This document shows, in pieces, positions 34,357-52,786 of a DNA stretch of 64,000 nt. The notes beneath the pieces were generated by a model. That model saw nothing but the letters and a program-made list of their open reading frames with translations. It had not been told where the DNA came from and did no database searches. Source of the stretch: Candidatus Omnitrophota bacterium (GTDB lineage Bacteria > Omnitrophota > Gorgyraeia > S143-82). Location: the NCBI GenBank assembly GCA_015494465.1, contig WGBD01000001.1:244477-308476 (forward strand), read 5' to 3'. The position numbers and the translations under genes are program-made. The stretch's first letter is position 1, and each line of letters opens with the position of its first letter.

Positions 34357-36504
34357 TCAGGCCCGGGCGCTCTCCTGACGGGAATCGCGTAAGATCAAAA
34401 GCGACCCACCCAAGGTCTCAACGAGCCAGCGAACCCAAGCAGAAGAAAAAGCCTCCCCCGTGGGAGCACCAAAGATGTTAAGATCCGCACGGGGGGCATC
34501 CCCTAGGATAGACCGAAAGTCTCCCGAGAGCACGGTTACCGTGGTGTCTGCAGGCAGACGCATCACCTCTTTCAGTCGAGCAAGATAGCGATATCCTTTC
34601 TCTTCTTCTCCCTCTCGAACGACCTGCATTAGATTGAGCTTGACCTCAAGGGACCTGTGTAGGTGCAAGGCTATAAGGATCGCTAGGTCCCTATTCGGAG
34701 AGCCTTCCCTTATCCAGAGATTGACCGTCTTAATGTCCTTCGCACTCGAGCAATAGGCCCCCAAGAGGCCAAGATTCTTATCCTCTGAGAGGGACAAAAA
34801 CTCCGGCAAAGACCGAAGCAGGGCCTCTTCTTGGAAGTCCAAAAAGAGCAGGTTGGCGGGGAGGAACATCTGCTCGCAAACGTAGAGGGCCTGAGACACT
34901 GACGATATCGGATCCCCTGAGAAGCAGAGCTCGGTGGCAAAAAATCCCATCGCCTGCAACCTGGAAACGAAATCCCTCGCAGAAGGACAGTCCTCTTTTC
35001 GGTAGCAGACCGCAACCAATCTCCCATTAGGGAATAGGACTGCCTCCAGCAGATCCCCACACCGGGTCAACGACTGGGCCCTGGCAGGGAAGAGGACGTT
35101 CGGTTTCCAACCTTTGGGGTGGTAAGGCAACCCCCGCGCTATCCTCAAGCACTTCTCCGCCAAGAAGATCAATAGCCCCTTTCTCACATCTGGCCACGAT
35201 CCGGAAAAACCCCTCTTTAGTAGCTGGACATAAAGGAAGAGCAAGAGCACCACTGCCAGGAAGGCAAAGAAGGGATCTATCAGGAACATGGCCAGGGCAC
35301 AGGCAAAGACCCCCGCCCCCGGTACGATTGAAGGCATGCGGAATGTGGGCCTAAAACTCACCACCCCTATTGCCTGCTCTATCAGGACTGACAGGTTGAT
35401 CGCCCCGTAGGTCATGAGAAAGATCATCGTGAGCAGACCCGCCAGGTAGTTCAAGGAGAGGAATAGGGCCAATAAGGATATCCCTGCGGTAACGCCTATT
35501 GCGAACACCGGCTCGCCCGAACGAGAAGTACGAGCCAACCAGTGAGATCCGGGAACTATACGATGCTTGGACAGGGCCAAGAGCACACGAGGAGAGGACA
35601 CGAACATGCTGAGTGCGGAGGACAGGGTAGCCCCCATTATCCCCGCTATCACCAGCGCGGGCCACTTGGCGTACTTCACTGCTACCGAGGGGTCTGCTAC
35701 CAACTCGCCAGCAGGGGCCACTCCAGCGAACCAAACCGCGGTCAGGCAATAAATGAGAAAGCTCAGCACGATGGCGGAGATCGTGCCCAACGGGATGGCC
35801 TTCTCCGGATCCTTTAGCTCCCCTGACATGTTCACTCCCGCCAGGATCCCTGTCACCGCAGGGAAAAACACCGCAAAGGCCTTCCAGAAGTCCACCATAT
35901 TCACCGGGACCAGCCTCAAGGCGGGCCCAAGACCGGGAAAGTTCAGGTACATGGACAAGAGGGCCAAGGCTATAGTGACAAGTATCAGGTATTGCAGACG
36001 AAAGGCCAGCCGGGCACTCCTTTGGGAGACCATAAACAAACAGATCCATACCACCAAAGAGACCAACAACTGGGAATGGGTAGGGAAGAGCCTGCTCACC
36101 CAGAGCTCCGAAAAACCTCGGATGTAAAAGGCAACCGAGATGGCCTGGGAGAGGTAAAGGGAGACACCTATGGTGCCTCCTGCCTCCATCCCCAGAGAGC
36201 GGGATATCATGGAATATGCCCCACCCGCGCCTATCCTGCGATTGCTTACTATGGACCACAGAGAAAGGGCGGTGATAAATGTGATGGTGTTACTGATCAG
36301 GATGATTCCAAGGGCCCGGAAGATCCCCACCTGACCTACCACCCAACCCAGGCGTAGAAATAATATCACCCCCAGGATACTCAGGAGCGTTGGAACGAAG
36401 ACACCTTCGAAGGCCCCGAATCGTCGCATACTGCCTACCCTTAAGTGATCAAAACCCAAGTCCATTATACCAGTATTTTTGCTATAATTACTTTGCGGAT
36501 CCAA
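34357..36504 (-). CDS. cation-chloride cotransporter (SLC12/CCC) family permease with a C-terminal cytoplasmic domain
   Basis: 715 aa. FGAFEGVFVPTLLSILGVILFLRLGWVVGQVGI is the CCC family N-terminal signature. About 12 TM segments are followed by a roughly 250-aa soluble domain. Confidence 0.65.
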   Translation of the reverse strand: MDPQSNYSKNTGIMDLGFDHLRVGSMRRFGAFEGVFVPTLLSILGVILFLRLGWVVGQVGIFRALGIILISNTITFITALSLWSIVSNRRIGAGGAYSMISRSLGMEAGGTIGVSLYLSQAISVAFYIRGFSELWVSRLFPTHSQLLVSLVVWICLFMVSQRSARLAFRLQYLILVTIALALLSMYLNFPGLGPALRLVPVNMVDFWKAFAVFFPAVTGILAGVNMSGELKDPEKAIPLGTISAIVLSFLIYCLTAVWFAGVAPAGELVADPSVAVKYAKWPALVIAGIMGATLSSALSMFVSSPRVLLALSKHRIVPGSHWLARTSRSGEPVFAIGVTAGISLLALFLSLNYLAGLLTMIFLMTYGAINLSVLIEQAIGVVSFRPTFRMPSIVPGAGVFACALAMFLIDPFFAFLAVVLLLFLYVQLLKRGFSGSWPDVRKGLLIFLAEKCLRIARGLPYHPKGWKPNVLFPARAQSLTRCGDLLEAVLFPNGRLVAVCYRKEDCPSARDFVSRLQAMGFFATELCFSGDPISSVSQALYVCEQMFLPANLLFLDFQEEALLRSLPEFLSLSEDKNLGLLGAYCSSAKDIKTVNLWIREGSPNRDLAILIALHLHRSLEVKLNLMQVVREGEEEKGYRYLARLKEVMRLPADTTVTVLSGDFRSILGDAPRADLNIFGAPTGEAFSSAWVRWLVETLGGSLLILRDSRQESARA
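36461..36488 (+). promoter_or_regulatory. extended -10 promoter (TGCTATAAT) for the thioredoxin-like gene
   Basis: TGCTATAAT at 36480-36488. The AGGAGG SD lies 8 nt before the ATG at 36529. Confidence 0.45.
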
Positions 36505-36528
36505 TCTAAACCAAACAGGAGGTAGATC

Positions 36529-36948
36529 ATGAGGCGGTTGATGGTGACGATTATCTTACTCTGCCTGCTGAGTCTTCCTGCCTTCTCCGCAGAGCAAGCC
36601 CAATCCTCTGCATCCAAATCCAAACTTCACCTAATACTGTTCTATTCCAGTCACTGCGGGGCGTGCCTAAAACTGGAAAACGAATACATCCCCGTGATCC
36701 TAAAAAAGTACGGCGATGCAATCGATCTCGATCAAAGGGAGATAAACGAGAAAAAGGAACACCTAGAGCAACTCCTAACCTATAACCCCGAAGGGACCGT
36801 CCCTACCATGGTGGTCCCTAGCCTGAACAAGGTCTTCGTGGGGGTAGAGGAGATCGAGACCAGTGTCACCCCGATAATAAAGGACTTCGTCGCTGGCAGG
36901 CTGTCCCCATCCTCCAACCAAGGATCAGGGACTAAAAAAAAACTCTAG
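36529..36948 (+). CDS. periplasmic thioredoxin-fold thiol-disulfide oxidoreductase
   Basis: 139 aa. Signal peptide MRRLMVTIILLCLLSLPAFSA. The CxxC active site is in LILFYSSHCGACLKLENEY. The gene ends ...GTKKKL* in an A9 run. Confidence 0.6.
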   Translation: MRRLMVTIILLCLLSLPAFSAEQAQSSASKSKLHLILFYSSHCGACLKLENEYIPVILKKYGDAIDLDQREINEKKEHLEQLLTYNPEGTVPTMVVPSLNKVFVGVEEIETSVTPIIKDFVAGRLSPSSNQGSGTKKKL

Positions 36949-37682
36949 CGGAGTTCTTCAATGAGCTTTCCGTACCGGTAATCGCCCTAGCGGGACTGAT
37001 AGACGGGATCAATCCCTGTGCCTTTGCGGTAATCGTCTTCTTTATATCCTTCTTGACCGTCTACAACTATTCCCGAAGACAGATAATCGCCATAGGCAGT
37101 AGTTACATCTTTGCGGTGTTCTTGACCTACCTATTGATAGGGCTGGGGTTCTTCAAGGCCCTCTACTCCCTCAAGGCCATATACTGGCTTAACCGAGCGC
37201 TGTACAAGGGCCTTGCCTTCCTCTGCCTACTCCTGGGAATCCTTGCCTTGCTAGACTACATCTCCTACCGCGAGACCCAAGACTACAAAGCGCAGATCCT
37301 GCAACTGCCGACCTCCCTCAAAAAACGCATAAACCAGGTATTTGGTTGGCTGAGGAAGCGGGAAAGGGAGGCAGTCTGGAAGCTCGTCTGCATCGCCTTC
37401 GTCGTAGGTCTGCTGGTCAGCATCCTGGAGTGCGCCTGCACGGGACAGATATACATCCCTACCATCACCCTCATGATGGCCCAAGAGAAGGTGAAGGCCT
37501 TCTTTTTCCTGATCCTCTACAACCTTATGTTCGTAATGCCGTTGATAGCGGTCTTCCTGATCGCCTTATTAGGTGTGAGTTCCCAGACCATTTCTGGATT
37601 CTTAAAAAGACACCTAGGGATCATCAAGATCTTTATGGCCTTCTTGTTCTTCTTCCTGGCGGGGCTCCTATTCGCCTACTAG
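36945..37682 (+). CDS. CcdA/DsbD-like thiol-disulfide transporter membrane protein with no canonical in-frame start; possibly expressed as a fusion to the upstream thioredoxin
   Basis: The frame is open from 36936. It encodes ELSVPVIALAGLIDGINPCAFAVIVFF (a TM1 with a conserved Cys), but the first standard start is TTG at 37053, downstream of that Cys. A second Cys motif LECACTG follows, then about 6 TM helices. Confidence 0.45.
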   Translation, partial: LAEFFNELSVPVIALAGLIDGINPCAFAVIVFFISFLTVYNYSRRQIIAIGSSYIFAVFLTYLLIGLGFFKALYSLKAIYWLNRALYKGLAFLCLLLGILALLDYISYRETQDYKAQILQLPTSLKKRINQVFGWLRKREREAVWKLVCIAFVVGLLVSILECACTGQIYIPTITLMMAQEKVKAFFFLILYNLMFVMPLIAVFLIALLGVSSQTISGFLKRHLGIIKIFMAFLFFFLAGLLFAY

Positions 37683-39084
37683 GCTGGACCCGGCCCTGTT
37701 CCAGGGCCAGTTTTTCCAGTCCCTCTTTTATGGGAATAGGGTACCTCCCCGAGAAACAGGCGGTGCAGAACCTGCCTCCGTTCCCTATGGCCTCCAGCAT
37801 CCCCTCCAAAGATAGGTACCCTAAGCTGTCCACATTCAAGAACTCCTCCACTGCCTCGTGATTCATCTTATTTGCAATCAACTCCTCTCGCGAGGGGAAG
37901 TCTATCCCGTAGAAGCAGGGCCAGCGATGAGGAGGACAGGAGATACGCAAGTGAACCTCTTTGGCCCCTGCATTGCGTATGGCCCTCACTCGCCTCCGAG
38001 AAGTCGTCCCCCGAACTATCGAATCGTCCACCACGATCACCCTCTTGCCCCGCACCACCTCGGGCATTATGTTGAGCTTTATCCTAACCCCGAGATCACG
38101 ATGGCGCTGGTGGGGCTGGATAAAGGTCCTACCCACATAGTGGTTCCGGATAAAGCCCCACTCTAGGGGTATCCCTGACTCTTGGGAGTAGCCTATCGCC
38201 GCGCTGAGCCCTGAATCCGGCACCGGGATCACCATGTCCGCCTCTACTGGATGTTCCCTTGCCAACTGCTTGCCCAATTCCTTGCGGACTTCGTGTACTA
38301 GCCTTCCAAACACCACCGAATCCGGACGGGCGAAGTATATGTGCTCAAATACGCACTGGCTTACCTTGCGCCTCTTTCCGTTCGGGAAGAAGGACCTCAA
38401 GCCCTCGTCGTTTATCAGCACCAATTCACCCGGTTCTACCTCCCGCACATACCTAGCACCTATGAGGTCCAAGGCACAGCTCTCCGAGGCCAATATGTAG
38501 GCCCCGTCCACCTCACCCAGGACCAGAGGGCGAAAACCGTAGGGATCTCTTACCCCCATCATCCCGTGTTGATTCAACATAACCAGGGAATAGGCCCCCC
38601 TAACTCGCCTCAAGGCGTAAAATATGTGTTCCAACCAATCTCCTCGCTTGGCGTGGGCGATGAGGTGCACTATCACCTCACTATCGGTGCTAGTCTGAAA
38701 GATCGCTCCCCGACCTTCCAATTCTCTCCTCAGCTCCCTGCTGTTTATGAGATTGCCGTTGTGTCCGATTGCCAGGAATCCGTCCTTGTAATTGATCAAC
38801 AACGGCTGGGCATTCTCTAGTATGCTGGAACCAGTAGTGGAATAACGCACATGGCCTACTGCCACATCCCCTGGGAGGTGGGACAAAGACTGCTCGTCGA
38901 AGACATCCGCCACCAGCCCCATTCCCTTGTGGACGAAGGCCTGCCTACTGGTCCTCTCAAAAGAGACTATCCCTGCACTCTCTTGTCCCCTGTGTTGCAG
39001 GGCATAGAGCCCTAGGAAAGTGAAGTAAACCGCATCCTTGTGCCCCCAAATCCCAAAAACACCACAGGCCTCTTTGAGCTCCAT
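37633..39084 (-). CDS. purF: amidophosphoribosyltransferase PurF
   Basis: 483 aa. N-terminal nucleophile in CGVFGIWGH, the PRTase motif VIVVDDSIVRGTT, and C-terminal Fe-S cysteines. Confidence 0.9.
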   Translation of the reverse strand: MELKEACGVFGIWGHKDAVYFTFLGLYALQHRGQESAGIVSFERTSRQAFVHKGMGLVADVFDEQSLSHLPGDVAVGHVRYSTTGSSILENAQPLLINYKDGFLAIGHNGNLINSRELRRELEGRGAIFQTSTDSEVIVHLIAHAKRGDWLEHIFYALRRVRGAYSLVMLNQHGMMGVRDPYGFRPLVLGEVDGAYILASESCALDLIGARYVREVEPGELVLINDEGLRSFFPNGKRRKVSQCVFEHIYFARPDSVVFGRLVHEVRKELGKQLAREHPVEADMVIPVPDSGLSAAIGYSQESGIPLEWGFIRNHYVGRTFIQPHQRHRDLGVRIKLNIMPEVVRGKRVIVVDDSIVRGTTSRRRVRAIRNAGAKEVHLRISCPPHRWPCFYGIDFPSREELIANKMNHEAVEEFLNVDSLGYLSLEGMLEAIGNGGRFCTACFSGRYPIPIKEGLEKLALEQGRVQPSRRIGAPPGRRTRRP

Positions 39085-49847: not shown

Positions 49848-51257
49848 TTAGTCCTCCACGATAACCTTTATGCTCTCCAACATGTACTTAGCCACCGTAT
49901 TATCCGGATCCTCTTGCAATAACCTTTCCAACAGCTGTTTGGCAAGGGCAAAATCCTCCCTGTCTATCGCCTTCATGGCCTCTTGGAATAGATCTCCCTC
50001 TCCTTGACCTTGCGCAGGGGTTGTCTTGCTCATTTCAGGCGAGGCAATGGCCTTATCTGCCTCTTTTTTGTCGCCCGCTTGTTTCTCAACAGGCCTGGTA
50101 GTGCTTATCCTGGCAACCGCCTTTCGCTGTAGGTTGGCTATCTTGTCTTTCAAGTTTCGTATGATAATGTCCCTTTCCTCGAGGCGCTTCCTCAGGTCCT
50201 CCAACATCCTTTCTCGCTCTTGGGCCTTACCCTCTGCGATCTCTAATTTAGTCCTCATGTTGTCCTTCTCCAAGCTGGCCGCCTTGATCTTGGCCTCCAT
50301 TGTGCGCATCTTGGCCTCCCTATCCTTAAGCAGGGCCTGGCAATCTTGATAGGCCTTATCTTTGTTGCTTAGTTCTACCGTCATGTCTTGTTTCAACTTG
50401 CGATAATCCTTGGAAATGGCGTCGTACTTGTTCAAGAGCTCCTTGATCCTCCTTCCCCTCTCTTCCAGTTCCTTGCTTAATACTGAGAGCCTTTCCGCCA
50501 ATCTTCTCCGCTCTAATTCTGCCGCTTTGAACTTATCTTGCAAGGAGGCGATTGTATTTTGATATTTATCCTCTAACTTCTTTTCTAGTAGGCTATAACT
50601 GTTGAGGATGCGCTTGATCTTCGCATCCTTCTCTGCTATCTGCCGTTCCTTCTCCTTGAGCTCTTTCTCCAATTCCATCAGGCTGTCTCTCAATTGCTTC
50701 TTTATCTCTTCCAATCGAGCTCTATACTCTTCTTGTTTGGAGGCCAACAGCTCCCTGTACATCTGATCCTTCTTTTCCAAATCAAACTGGGCCTTTTCCT
50801 CTATAGTCTTGACCTTGTCCTCGTACACCCTTTCCAATTCCTGAAGCCTTTCCTCGTAATACTGTCTCCAGCTCTCTTTCTCCTCTACCAGGCGCTTTTT
50901 CATCTCTACCAACTCTTTCTGGGCCTCCTTTAACTGCGCCACTAGGGTATCCTGGCTACAGGATTGGGCCTGTTCAAGCTGGTGTTCCAACTCCATCATC
51001 AGGCTGTCCAACCTAACCTTGATCCTCTGGTCGTCAGGGAACATAAACGCAGCTGAAGAAAGCAAACGAAAGGCGGTCAAAAGGTCTCCTTTTTCCCTCT
51101 CCTCCTCAGCCTCACGATAGAGCTTGTTGGCCCGATCGACCAACTCTTCCCAGACATCGTTGCCTTTCTCGGCAAGGCCTAACGAGTAAGATGGACCTAA
51201 CAACAAGATTACAACCAGAACACACCTACTCCACCTTTTCATGCTCCTCCCCTTCAA
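49848..51257 (-). CDS. secreted long coiled-coil protein with TPR-like termini
   Basis: 469 aa. A signal peptide is followed by about 330 aa of E/K/R/L heptads (predicted coiled coil). The N- and C-termini have short TPR-like helical pairs. Confidence 0.5.
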   Translation of the reverse strand: MKGRSMKRWSRCVLVVILLLGPSYSLGLAEKGNDVWEELVDRANKLYREAEEEREKGDLLTAFRLLSSAAFMFPDDQRIKVRLDSLMMELEHQLEQAQSCSQDTLVAQLKEAQKELVEMKKRLVEEKESWRQYYEERLQELERVYEDKVKTIEEKAQFDLEKKDQMYRELLASKQEEYRARLEEIKKQLRDSLMELEKELKEKERQIAEKDAKIKRILNSYSLLEKKLEDKYQNTIASLQDKFKAAELERRRLAERLSVLSKELEERGRRIKELLNKYDAISKDYRKLKQDMTVELSNKDKAYQDCQALLKDREAKMRTMEAKIKAASLEKDNMRTKLEIAEGKAQERERMLEDLRKRLEERDIIIRNLKDKIANLQRKAVARISTTRPVEKQAGDKKEADKAIASPEMSKTTPAQGQGEGDLFQEAMKAIDREDFALAKQLLERLLQEDPDNTVAKYMLESIKVIVED

Positions 51258-52479
51258 GCCTCGTCAAGAGATCTGGCGACACCAACTGCTTTATTTTATT
51301 CACTAACTCGCCTTCCATATGCCAAACCGGACCTTCCACATCTTTCTCCGGATCCGCTATCAGGACCTCCTTTACCGGATCGCACCTCCCTCCATCTGGG
51401 GTCCTCACCTTGACGCACCGGTATCCTCCCTGCTTGGTGGGTGAGGCGACTATCACCTGGGAACCATCCTTCAACCTTAGCCACTCCCCGACATAATACA
51501 TCGCTACATACCTTTCCAACAATTCCAAGCTCTTTGGGTCGAAGAGCTTACCAGAAAACGAGCGCATAGCATCCAAGACCTTATAGGGCCCGTACATCCC
51601 CCGCAAAGATTCGAAGTTCTCCGCAACCGAGACTATCTTGCTATACAGGTGCATCTGACGGGGATAACCGTAGAAGTCCTTCTCGGGTATGTCGTCCGGA
51701 TACCCGCTGTTATTGACATAGCGATGATGCTCCAGGGCAACTATGCCTACCTGAGGCCCGAATATGTCGGTTTCGTTAATGAGCATACATCCTATCCTCG
51801 AGTGCTTAAAAAAAAGCTCGCGCAAACTAGGATCTGAACCCATCCACAGCTCGTCTACCCATCCCGCATCGCTCATAAGTGCACCGGTGACGATGTGCCC
51901 AATCCTCTCTGCATTCAGCTCTCCATAGTGAAGGGCAATAATACCGGAGATAATAGCCACATTTATAGCGTGGCTCACTCTATAATTGGCATCGGTATAA
52001 ACGAACGGCATAGGGCTGACTTGGTGATAGGAATAGTTTGCCCTCACCAAATAAACTAGATCTTGTATCACCTTCCTATAACGGTGCAATGTATTGAACG
52101 GTATGTTAGAGTACCTCTGCCAGTATTCCCTGAACCTATAGTCCAGCTTTTTATTCTCTCCCTGCTCCGAGAGGTAGATGCTCAATACCACACTGCACCT
52201 GGCCAAGAAATCCTCCAACACCGCTCTGAGGGCAATCCGGGAATCCTCGTCTAATAAGAGATCGAATTCCAGATCGCACCCAGGCTCCTTTAAAAATACG
52301 AAATCCAATCCAAGGGTATTGAGCCTATCCACATGCCCCAGACCTATCTTCACCCCCTTCCCTGCGAACCGAATGCGCATGCCCCGGGCGCTGAGATAGA
52401 CTACATCCCGAGCAAGTTCTGCCTGTCCACCGTACTCCTGAAGAACCGCCTCAAGATTGCTTATAGGAACTACTCTCAT
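51226..52479 (-). CDS. HD-GYP-like domain protein (degenerate: the HD dyad is replaced by SD; the GYP motif is retained)
   Basis: 417 aa. It has EHHRYVNNSGYP (the HHExxDGSGYP-like motif), but the upstream metal-binding motif reads GALMSDAGW instead of xLLHDIGK. Confidence 0.55.
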   Translation of the reverse strand: MRVVPISNLEAVLQEYGGQAELARDVVYLSARGMRIRFAGKGVKIGLGHVDRLNTLGLDFVFLKEPGCDLEFDLLLDEDSRIALRAVLEDFLARCSVVLSIYLSEQGENKKLDYRFREYWQRYSNIPFNTLHRYRKVIQDLVYLVRANYSYHQVSPMPFVYTDANYRVSHAINVAIISGIIALHYGELNAERIGHIVTGALMSDAGWVDELWMGSDPSLRELFFKHSRIGCMLINETDIFGPQVGIVALEHHRYVNNSGYPDDIPEKDFYGYPRQMHLYSKIVSVAENFESLRGMYGPYKVLDAMRSFSGKLFDPKSLELLERYVAMYYVGEWLRLKDGSQVIVASPTKQGGYRCVKVRTPDGGRCDPVKEVLIADPEKDVEGPVWHMEGELVNKIKQLVSPDLLTRLEGEEHEKVE

Positions 52480-52786
52480 TCTTTGCCCTGTAAAGGTTTA
52501 TAAAAAGCTCCACCTTCCCGATGTGAATACCCGATTTAAGGGATATCTCCTTTGGTGAAAGCCCTTGTCTATACATCTCAACCACCTGTTTCGCCTCAGA
52601 GGTGCTCAGAAAATCTTCCTCCTCTTGTCTATCCGAAACCCCACCCGTTCTTGACAACAACGATTCCAAGCGAGTGATTGCCTCCTCAGCCCTCTTTAAC
52701 AAGGCCTCTAACCTCTTTTCCTCTTGCCTTAGAGAGGTCAACATTAAATCAAATACCTCGTAAATCTCCTTCAGTCGCCCTTCCAT
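52451..52786 (-). CDS. small coiled-coil protein with a C-terminal helix-turn-helix
   Basis: 111 aa. The C-terminus GLSPKEISLKSGIHIGKVELFINLYR is HTH-like. It lies in the fliA-adjacent operon. Confidence 0.4.
   Translation of the reverse strand: MEGRLKEIYEVFDLMLTSLRQEEKRLEALLKRAEEAITRLESLLSRTGGVSDRQEEEDFLSTSEAKQVVEMYRQGLSPKEISLKSGIHIGKVELFINLYRAKNESSSYKQS

Follow-up and report, generated by a model that had tools for sequence, protein, structure and literature searches.

Recoding, in which expression shifts from one reading frame to another within a gene, is a known phenomenon in bacteria, as illustrated by tssM, dnaX, and mxiE, with copA adding the logic of a soluble domain and a transporter encoded together. 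Few conserved, non-mobile bacterial genes depend on it; the main examples are dnaX, prfB, copA, tssM, and mxiE, and each of the known recoded genes has been informative about expression of products in a set ratio. The present analysis concerns a putative envelope redox system of an uncultured phylum, Candidatus Omnitrophota, encoded in a 64,000-nucleotide stretch of DNA (contig WGBD01000001.1, positions 244,477 to 308,476 of the forward strand; hereafter the window, in whose own numbering positions are given unless another locus is named). In this locus, a run of nine A residues (A9) stands between an open reading frame (ORF) for a thioredoxin-like protein and a second ORF, in the −1 frame, for a six-helix membrane domain. 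We propose, with a probability of about 0.7, that the A9 run is a site of programmed recoding, probably at the level of transcription.

The dnaX gene of Thermus thermophilus resembles this locus in having an A9 run within a chromosomal, non-mobile gene, with alternative-frame stop codons nearby, and in yielding two products with a common N-terminus, tau and gamma, in a set ratio (PMC1088944, PMC3711429). Slippage at the Thermus run amounts to ~50% (PMC1088944), and nine A's placed in Escherichia coli reporters gave 40% frameshifted product (PMC3711429). Related genomes contain A10 versions of dnaX that are arranged as two ORFs (PMC1088944, PMC3711429). The templated frame of dnaX leads to the long product, whereas here it leads to the short one, and the functions of the proteins differ.

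In tssM1 of Citrobacter rodentium and tssM3 of Yersinia pseudotuberculosis, a premature stop codon in the gene of an envelope protein is closely preceded by a poly-A run, an arrangement shared with the present locus, and, as is proposed here, slippage restores the frame, with short and full-length variants arising from one gene (PMC4256274). In one species the run is out of frame and slippage yields the long form, and in another it is in frame and slippage yields the short form, a situation that parallels the split and fused lineages discussed below (PMC4256274). Slippage at the A11 run of tssM was shown experimentally to reach 20–25%, and both forms are required (PMC4256274). Unlike this experimentally studied A11 case, the runs considered here are A9 or A10, are known from sequence, belong to an unrelated protein family, and extend over a much deeper clade.

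Overlapping ORFs that are joined by a single untemplated nucleotide, as would be the case here, are found in mxiE of Shigella flexneri and also in mxiA, spa13, and spa33 (PMC1088944, PMC4256274); the long product of mxiE needs slippage, like its proposed counterpart in the present locus. The Shigella genes differ in being plasmid-borne virulence genes of a narrow taxon, and mxiE slips on a U run in the mRNA (PMC1088944). The copA gene of E. coli offers a parallel in function rather than in sequence, with a membrane transporter and its free N-terminal soluble domain, CopA(Z), a diffusible partner, both derived from one gene (PMC7558416). Unlike the reading favored here, the copA event is a ribosomal −1 frameshift in which the nascent chain takes part along with a slippery sequence and a pseudoknot; the long product of copA is the one made by standard decoding, and the soluble domain is cytoplasmic (PMC7558416).

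At the level of protein architecture, the locus compares with transporters of the DsbD/CcdA/ScsB type, with which it shares the combination of a thioredoxin domain and a six-helix domain with Cys residues in transmembrane helices 1 and 4 (TM1 and TM4). Such transporters pair a periplasmic CxxC thioredoxin-fold partner with a six-helix membrane domain, in which TM1 and TM4 are each interrupted at an essential-looking Cys that neighbors a Pro. The second motif of the present protein, ExxCTGQxYxP, differs from the second PC-type motif of DsbD and CcdA. Our literature search turned up no recoded gene for thioredoxin, CcdA, or DsbD and no case of recoding from Omnitrophota, and neither a comprehensive 2016 review nor the GeneTack survey mentions such recoding. 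If the reading is correct, this would be the first recoding described in a thiol-disulfide oxidoreductase system and in this phylum, and it would involve a membrane protein family that lies outside Pfam.

Anatomy of the locus and conservation of its frame break

The upstream ORF (ORF1; 0 frame, plus strand, 36529–36948) encodes a thioredoxin-like protein of 139 amino acids, as judged from sequence, alignment, AlphaFold2 modeling, and Foldseek comparison. It ends ACT AAA AAA AAA CTC TAG, giving the C-terminus KKKL. A Shine-Dalgarno (SD) sequence, AGGAGG, is read at 36517–36522 (plus strand), 6 nucleotides upstream of the ATG at 36529, and is the sole strong ribosome-binding site of the whole unit. 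The A9 run, the candidate recoding site (36934–36942, plus strand), is read AAA AAA AAA in the 0 frame and contains an in-phase A_AAA_AAA heptamer. Two codons downstream of the run, the 0-frame stop codon TAG (36946–36948, plus strand) ends the thioredoxin-only product.

The downstream ORF (ORF2; −1 frame, plus strand, 36936–37682) consists of 248 codons and a stop codon and encodes the six-helix membrane domain, as defined by sequence, alignment, and AlphaFold2. Its frame opens at 36936, directly after a TAA at 36933–36935, and closes with the stop codon at 37680–37682; its first codons encode KKTLAEFFNELSVPVIALAGLIDGINPCAF, which is followed by the polytopic membrane domain. No ATG, GTG, or TTG precedes the TM1 Cys codon (37017–37019) in ORF2 of the window, the first of these being a TTG at 37053, downstream of the Cys codon. 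One additional A, or a −1 slip, would create a 384-amino-acid fusion with the junction ...SGTKKKTLAEFF..., i.e., SGT-KKK-TLAEFF. The locus had been singled out in an earlier reading of the DNA letters (the original prediction), which placed an A9 run between a thioredoxin ORF and a start-less membrane frame, already open within the run and encoding the TM1 Cys upstream of any canonical start codon. Both the coordinates and the frame assignments of that description are borne out.

No longer homopolymer than this A9 run exists in the 64-kb window. A lone A9 or T9 in 64 kb is not unusual, as at least one was present in 28 of 100 shuffles of the window, and the significance of the run lies in its position and in its conservation in relatives. 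An identical locus, including the A9, is present in an independent Logan assembly of sequencing run SRR10312501 (locus L019; loci are referred to by L numbers below).

A protein search using the conceptual 384-amino-acid fusion as the query matched 2038 proteins. The best 120 of these are nearly all single ORFs of 365–410 amino acids that cover 88–100% of the query. The majority of the fused homologs come from metagenome-assembled genomes of Candidatus Omnitrophota, and the family also includes some Elusimicrobia. Whether orthologs are fused had been suggested as a check in the original prediction, and the distant ones are indeed single fused ORFs. Outside the clade to which the window belongs, the junctions of the fused homologs contain neither KKK nor an A run and consist of unrelated residues, e.g., ...SFLKTDL...; the sister group (P0005/P0025) is fused as well, with a junction that reads GGC GGT AAG ACG. 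Because the outgroup homologs are single fused ORFs, the fused architecture is ancestral. A search with the thioredoxin part alone returned just three clusters, from which no broad census was drawn.

Members of the clade were collected from the contigs of short matches (217–241 amino acids), through further look-ups, and with a nucleotide pattern that carried no requirement for an A run (AAR AAR ACN, 58 N, and then the DGINPCA codons). Twelve distinct lineages with a KKT junction were identified, of which 10 are split and two are fused in the DNA, and every one of the 12 has an A9 or A10 run at the junction. The split junctions have the form T-A9-C (the window, equivalent to L019; L001/2/21; L003; L004/5/6; L018; L007; L012; and L025), G-A9-C (L020), or T-A10-C, phased GTA AAA AAA AAA CAG TAG (L013/15). 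The fused junctions read CCT AAA AAA AAA ACT, with A10 in frame (L008), and GAA AAA AAA ACT, with A9 in frame (L009–11). The same −1 shift is required in 10 of 10 split lineages, and A_AAA_AAA stands in the 0-frame phase in all of them. The 0-frame stop is the second codon past the run in nine of the 10. The exception is L025, where the 0 frame reads on over 13 codons (L025 1448–1495; KKKLLMSYFIVSLFL, followed by a stop) because the Ile codon is ATT rather than ATA. The original prediction had held that orthologs with a clear start codon for the membrane protein and no homopolymer would count against it; the opposite was found, as relatives within the clade keep 9–10 A's and the same −1 relation.

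This conservation extends across considerable divergence. Among the clade lineages, amino acid identity is 50–91% in the membrane part and 31–85% in the thioredoxin part, the neighboring gene may be purF or serS, and the loci were obtained by various projects and assemblers (MEGAHIT, SPAdes, Logan, Joint Genome Institute [JGI]). Within the five lineages that were sampled two or three times (window/L019, the L001 group, L004/5/6, L013/15, and L009/10/11), run length is constant in the consensus sequences. One of these loci, L015 (CAYXYY010000011.1), is labeled "uncultured Planctomycetia bacterium" but is almost identical to L013 (Ga0256914_1002062), a metagenome contig from JGI that belongs to the Omnitrophota-type clade, and the Planctomycetia label of the bin may be wrong.

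Synonymous sites are saturated between most lineages (proportion of synonymous differences, pS, ~0.8), and the A run persists regardless. Lys codons in the genome of the window are 20% AAA and 80% AAG; from the codon usage of the window, the probability of KKK being written AAA AAA AAA is ~0.008, and per-locus estimates multiplied over nine deep lineages come to ~2e-10, a rough figure. Selection is evident on both ORFs. For ORF2, the ratio of nonsynonymous to synonymous substitution rates (dN/dS) is 0.080 between the window and L001 (dS 0.57) and 0.068 between L004 and L018 (dS 0.41), both of these pairs being split and unsaturated. Values of 0.07–0.08 between split pairs indicate that ORF2 is translated in the split state. 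The residues that are invariant in 56 family members begin six codons past the run (F144), upstream of any possible start codon. In four split lineages, a canonical start codon upstream of the catalytic Cys is lacking, the other six have ATG, GTG, or TTG within TM1 only and at varying positions, and no conserved start codon for ORF2 was found across the split lineages. That the run and the frame break persist to a degree not expected from codon usage and sequence divergence points to selection rather than accident. The original proposal that an extra A or a −1 slip joins the two frames thus gains support from the fused orthologs, from the conserved run and frame relation, and from purifying selection.

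In a neighbor-joining tree built on the membrane domain, the run-bearing lineages group together as a monophyletic clade (bootstrap 90). Nested within it are both fused lineages, L008 beside L007/L004/L018 (bootstrap 96) and L009 with L003/L020 (bootstrap 100). The most economical history suggested by this tree is that the poly-A tract and the frame break arose once and that the break was kept through deep divergence and undone twice. The routes of re-fusion differ, involving an extra A in L008 and a 2-nucleotide difference upstream of the run in L009, and the tract was kept in both. The family offers a natural comparative series: the frame is split in 10 lineages of the clade, two others have re-fused with the run still in place, and many outgroups are fused and lack it. 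The interest of the system lies in this series, in the depth of conservation, and in the logic of a carrier and a tethered reductase that would be made in a set ratio.

Two candidates encountered in these searches were set aside. P0142 (295 amino acids) appeared to be a further split form, but a run of N (a scaffold gap) lies inside its thioredoxin domain (L026, ~1230–1330) and there is no frameshift. L017 (Akkermansiaceae, AAA AAG ACC) matched the pattern 11 nucleotides from the start of the retrieved locus, falls outside the clade, and was not used.

The predicted thioredoxin and membrane domains

The ORF1 product begins with a Sec-type signal peptide (about residues 1–21). Its thioredoxin motif, C43-G-A-C46, is encoded at 36655–36666, and both Cys residues are invariant in 56 homologs. 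An AlphaFold2 model of the conceptual fusion, computed with these 56 homologs, has a mean predicted local distance difference test (pLDDT) score of 86.8. Residues 33–121 of the model adopt a thioredoxin fold; residues 129–135, directly before the Lys codons of the run, form a disordered linker (pLDDT <50), beyond which an amphipathic helix is followed by six long helices. Foldseek comparison with the PDB matched the model to thioredoxin and glutaredoxin structures (probability 1.0; template modeling score, normalized to the target, 0.5–0.7). Three Pfam Thioredoxin families match 37, 20, and 18 of the 56 members, and the window protein itself falls under the Pfam Thioredoxin cut-off (18.6 vs. 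23.5 bits). As modeled, the ORF1 product is a CxxC protein with a thioredoxin fold.

The membrane domain contains two invariant Cys residues, one in TM1 within P163-C164 (NPC; Cys codon 37017–37019) and the other in TM4, C304 (codon 37437–37439), within the motif E-x-x-C-T-G-Q-x-Y-x-P that ends in P311. The modeled helices are broken close to both, at 160/163 in TM1 and at 305/309 in TM4. Positively charged loops lie opposite the thioredoxin domain, a distribution consistent with a periplasmic location of thioredoxin in both products. The predicted structure thus has the architecture of CcdA and DsbD proteins, with a six-TM core, a Cys next to Pro in TM1, a Cys in TM4 (C304...P311), and a periplasmic thioredoxin-like partner. 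By analogy, the membrane domain may act as a relay of the DsbD/CcdA type.

The membrane part is not demonstrably a member of the CcdA/DsbD family. Neither Pfam DsbD (PF02683) nor DsbD_2 (PF13386) matches the window protein or any of the 56 members, sequence-profile searches of the PDB found no relative of the membrane part, and Foldseek matched no membrane chain in the PDB, its matches being confined to thioredoxins. An internal repeat in the membrane domain was not detected by sequence with hhalign. The sole model to match the domain is NCBIfam ArsG, a weak, sub-threshold match in 50 of 56 members. The term "CcdA-like," used for the domain in the original prediction, is therefore upheld by the architecture but finds no backing in the family models or among PDB membrane chains. 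Many of the homologs are named "cytochrome c biogenesis protein CcdA" by JGI, and this thioredoxin-6TM family, with >2000 database matches, has a membrane domain for which there is no Pfam model.

Proposed recoding at the A run and competing explanations

According to the favored reading, one gene and one transcription unit would give rise to two proteins through recoding at the A9 run. Standard decoding would produce the 139-amino-acid precursor, from which cleavage of the signal peptide would release a soluble periplasmic thioredoxin-like protein (CGAC) ending in KKKL. Some rounds of expression would instead shift to the −1 frame at the run, most likely through realignment of RNA polymerase on the nine A:T pairs and addition of a single untemplated A; these pairs would be just enough to occupy the RNA-DNA hybrid of the enzyme. 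The resulting 384-amino-acid protein would carry the same thioredoxin domain, tethered by the flexible linker to the six-helix membrane domain. As in DsbD and CcdA, the membrane domain would hand reducing equivalents on to the thioredoxin domain across the membrane, the free thioredoxin would serve as a diffusible carrier, and the frequency of slippage would set the ratio of the two forms. In the model, the slip site falls in the disordered interdomain linker, where recoding should be tolerated.

Several features favor transcriptional slippage as the level of recoding. Tandem tRNA slippage would need only A_AAA_AAA, yet no run in the 12 lineages is shorter than nine A's, and the two A's beyond the heptamer border the hypervariable, disordered linker, where substitution should be free. 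The lineages that are fused in the DNA also keep the tract, which is sensible if slippage in either direction gives a second product, and runs of nine A's are documented sites of polymerase slippage. Finally, no conserved stimulatory structure or SD-like element accompanies the run. No stable or conserved RNA structure was found within 90 nucleotides downstream or 70 nucleotides upstream of the run: the consensus fold of 11 lineages had a free energy of −1.66 kcal/mol and no covarying pairs, and single-sequence folds did not differ significantly from shuffled sequences (z about −1.7 to +1.4). The aligned junctions contained no conserved SD-like motif, and an Rfam scan of 36300–37800 gave no match at E ≤ 1.

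Other points weigh against this reading. From the conserved sequences we infer not only that slippage occurs but also its level, its efficiency, and a redox function, and the last of these, where the membrane domain is concerned, is argued from architecture and analogy. A_AAA_AAA is a classical −1 ribosomal site that is in phase in every lineage, and sequence cannot separate the two levels. A10 and A9 states of the DNA both occur within the clade; the length of the homopolymer changes over evolutionary time. Some of the assemblies counted as independent may share the same or sister samples. A more specific proposal, that the clade has selected slippage by RNA polymerase as the normal mode of expression of a redox relay, with a single promoter and a single start codon serving both products, a fixed ratio of carrier to tethered form, both forms needed, and tuning by the phase of the run, is given even odds.

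The competing explanation that survives best, itself rather unlikely, is that the ribosome makes the shift on an unedited mRNA, through −1 tandem slippage of tRNA-Lys on A_AAA_AAA or through poly(A) sliding. This route would lead to an identical T-K-K-K-T junction and to the same pair of products, the in-phase heptamer and the position of the 0-frame stop fit this mechanism as readily, in 10 of 10 and nine of 10 split lineages, respectively, and frameshifting at A_AAA_AAA and A_AAA_AAG is well established in bacteria (PMC3711429, PMC1851650). It does not account for runs of at least nine A's in every lineage, when seven would suffice, or for the long runs kept by the fused lineages, and the hairpin, pseudoknot, or upstream SD-like element that is usual, though not obligatory, at such sites is not conserved here. 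Ribosomal −1 slippage or sliding is regarded as a live alternative to transcriptional slippage or a contributor alongside it.

Much less probable is phase variation at the level of DNA, by which replication would add or remove an A and switch the membrane domain ON (A10) or OFF (A9), with assemblies showing the majority state. In its favor, poly-A tracts are known to serve as contingency loci (PMC3711429), the locus encodes an envelope protein, and the clade does include a fused A10 state (L008) along with split A9 states. However, no length difference was seen in the consensus sequences of any multiply sampled lineage, run lengths are limited to 9 and 10, and "OFF" would be the state of 10 of the 12 lineages, among them pairs at dS ~0.4–0.6. 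Moreover, the change that put L009 back in frame lies outside the run, and L013 remains out of frame with its A10, which argues that it is the frame relation that is conserved and not a toggling run length.

It is more improbable still that two separate, never fused genes are present, with translation of the membrane protein beginning independently, at a non-canonical or internal start codon or through reinitiation downstream of the ORF1 stop codon. Gene callers do annotate two ORFs, and an ATG or TTG is present inside TM1 in some lineages, but no SD sequence precedes candidate starts, start positions are not conserved, and in four of the 10 split lineages the catalytic Cys is reached without any canonical start codon. 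Residue conservation that begins immediately at the run and includes the invariant F144, together with the fusion of all outgroups, also speaks against independent translation. For annotation the difference matters, as pipelines call a 139-amino-acid orphan and an N-terminally truncated membrane protein without its catalytic Cys, or would flag a pseudogene, where under the recoding reading the true product is a fusion of ~384 amino acids.

Least probable of all, and essentially refuted by the comparative data, is a sequencing or assembly error at the homopolymer or a recent pseudogene, for although homopolymers are error-prone on some platforms and a single A9 is not improbable by chance in 64 kb, the same state recurs in 10 diverged lineages that were sequenced by different projects and put together with different assemblers, ORF2 retains its low dN/dS (0.07–0.08) with no further lesions, and ORFs of at least 200 amino acids span 89% of the window, so that the assembly is not generally frameshift-ridden. 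The alternatives that the original prediction had itself allowed for, namely sequencing error, a pseudogene, and non-ATG initiation, are all disfavored by the conserved run, the evidence of selection, and the survey of start codons.

Transcription unit and genomic neighborhood

A putative promoter for the unit was read from the sequence at 36480–36488 (plus strand), where TGCTATAAT, a perfect extended −10 element, lies ~40 nucleotides upstream of the ORF1 start. It was missed by the consensus scan since no −35 hexamer qualified. In the region 36200–37900, promoter-like matches were at the level of chance (one found vs. 1.4 expected), and the single match, at 37060–37087, lies inside ORF2, downstream of the Cys codon; no internal promoter above chance was found between the ORFs, nor did a scan of the same region find any terminator-like site between ORF1 and ORF2. 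The scan did detect a terminator-like hairpin, GGCCCTG-TTC-CAGGGCC followed by the T run AGTTTTTCC, at 37692–37717 (plus strand), just downstream of the ORF2 stop codon.

A convergent purF-like gene (37633–39084, minus strand) overlaps the 3′ end of ORF2 by 50 nucleotides (37633–37682), and with this overlap the plus-strand hairpin at 37692–37717 sits within the purF coding sequence. The overlap of the purF-like gene with the 3′ end of ORF2 is also found in the L001 lineage (L001 3605–3654). Most long ORFs of the window (39 of 42) are on the minus strand, and plus-strand GC skew is −0.13 to −0.23 across its whole length (C 20159 vs. G 14128). The recoded gene is one of just three long plus-strand ORFs, and its transcription opposes the dominant direction. 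The second-longest homopolymer of the window, at 51808–51815, is a plus-strand A8 that corresponds to T8 in the coding sense of an intact 423-amino-acid minus-strand ORF (51229–52497), in which it codes ...E-L-F-F-K... with no frame break.

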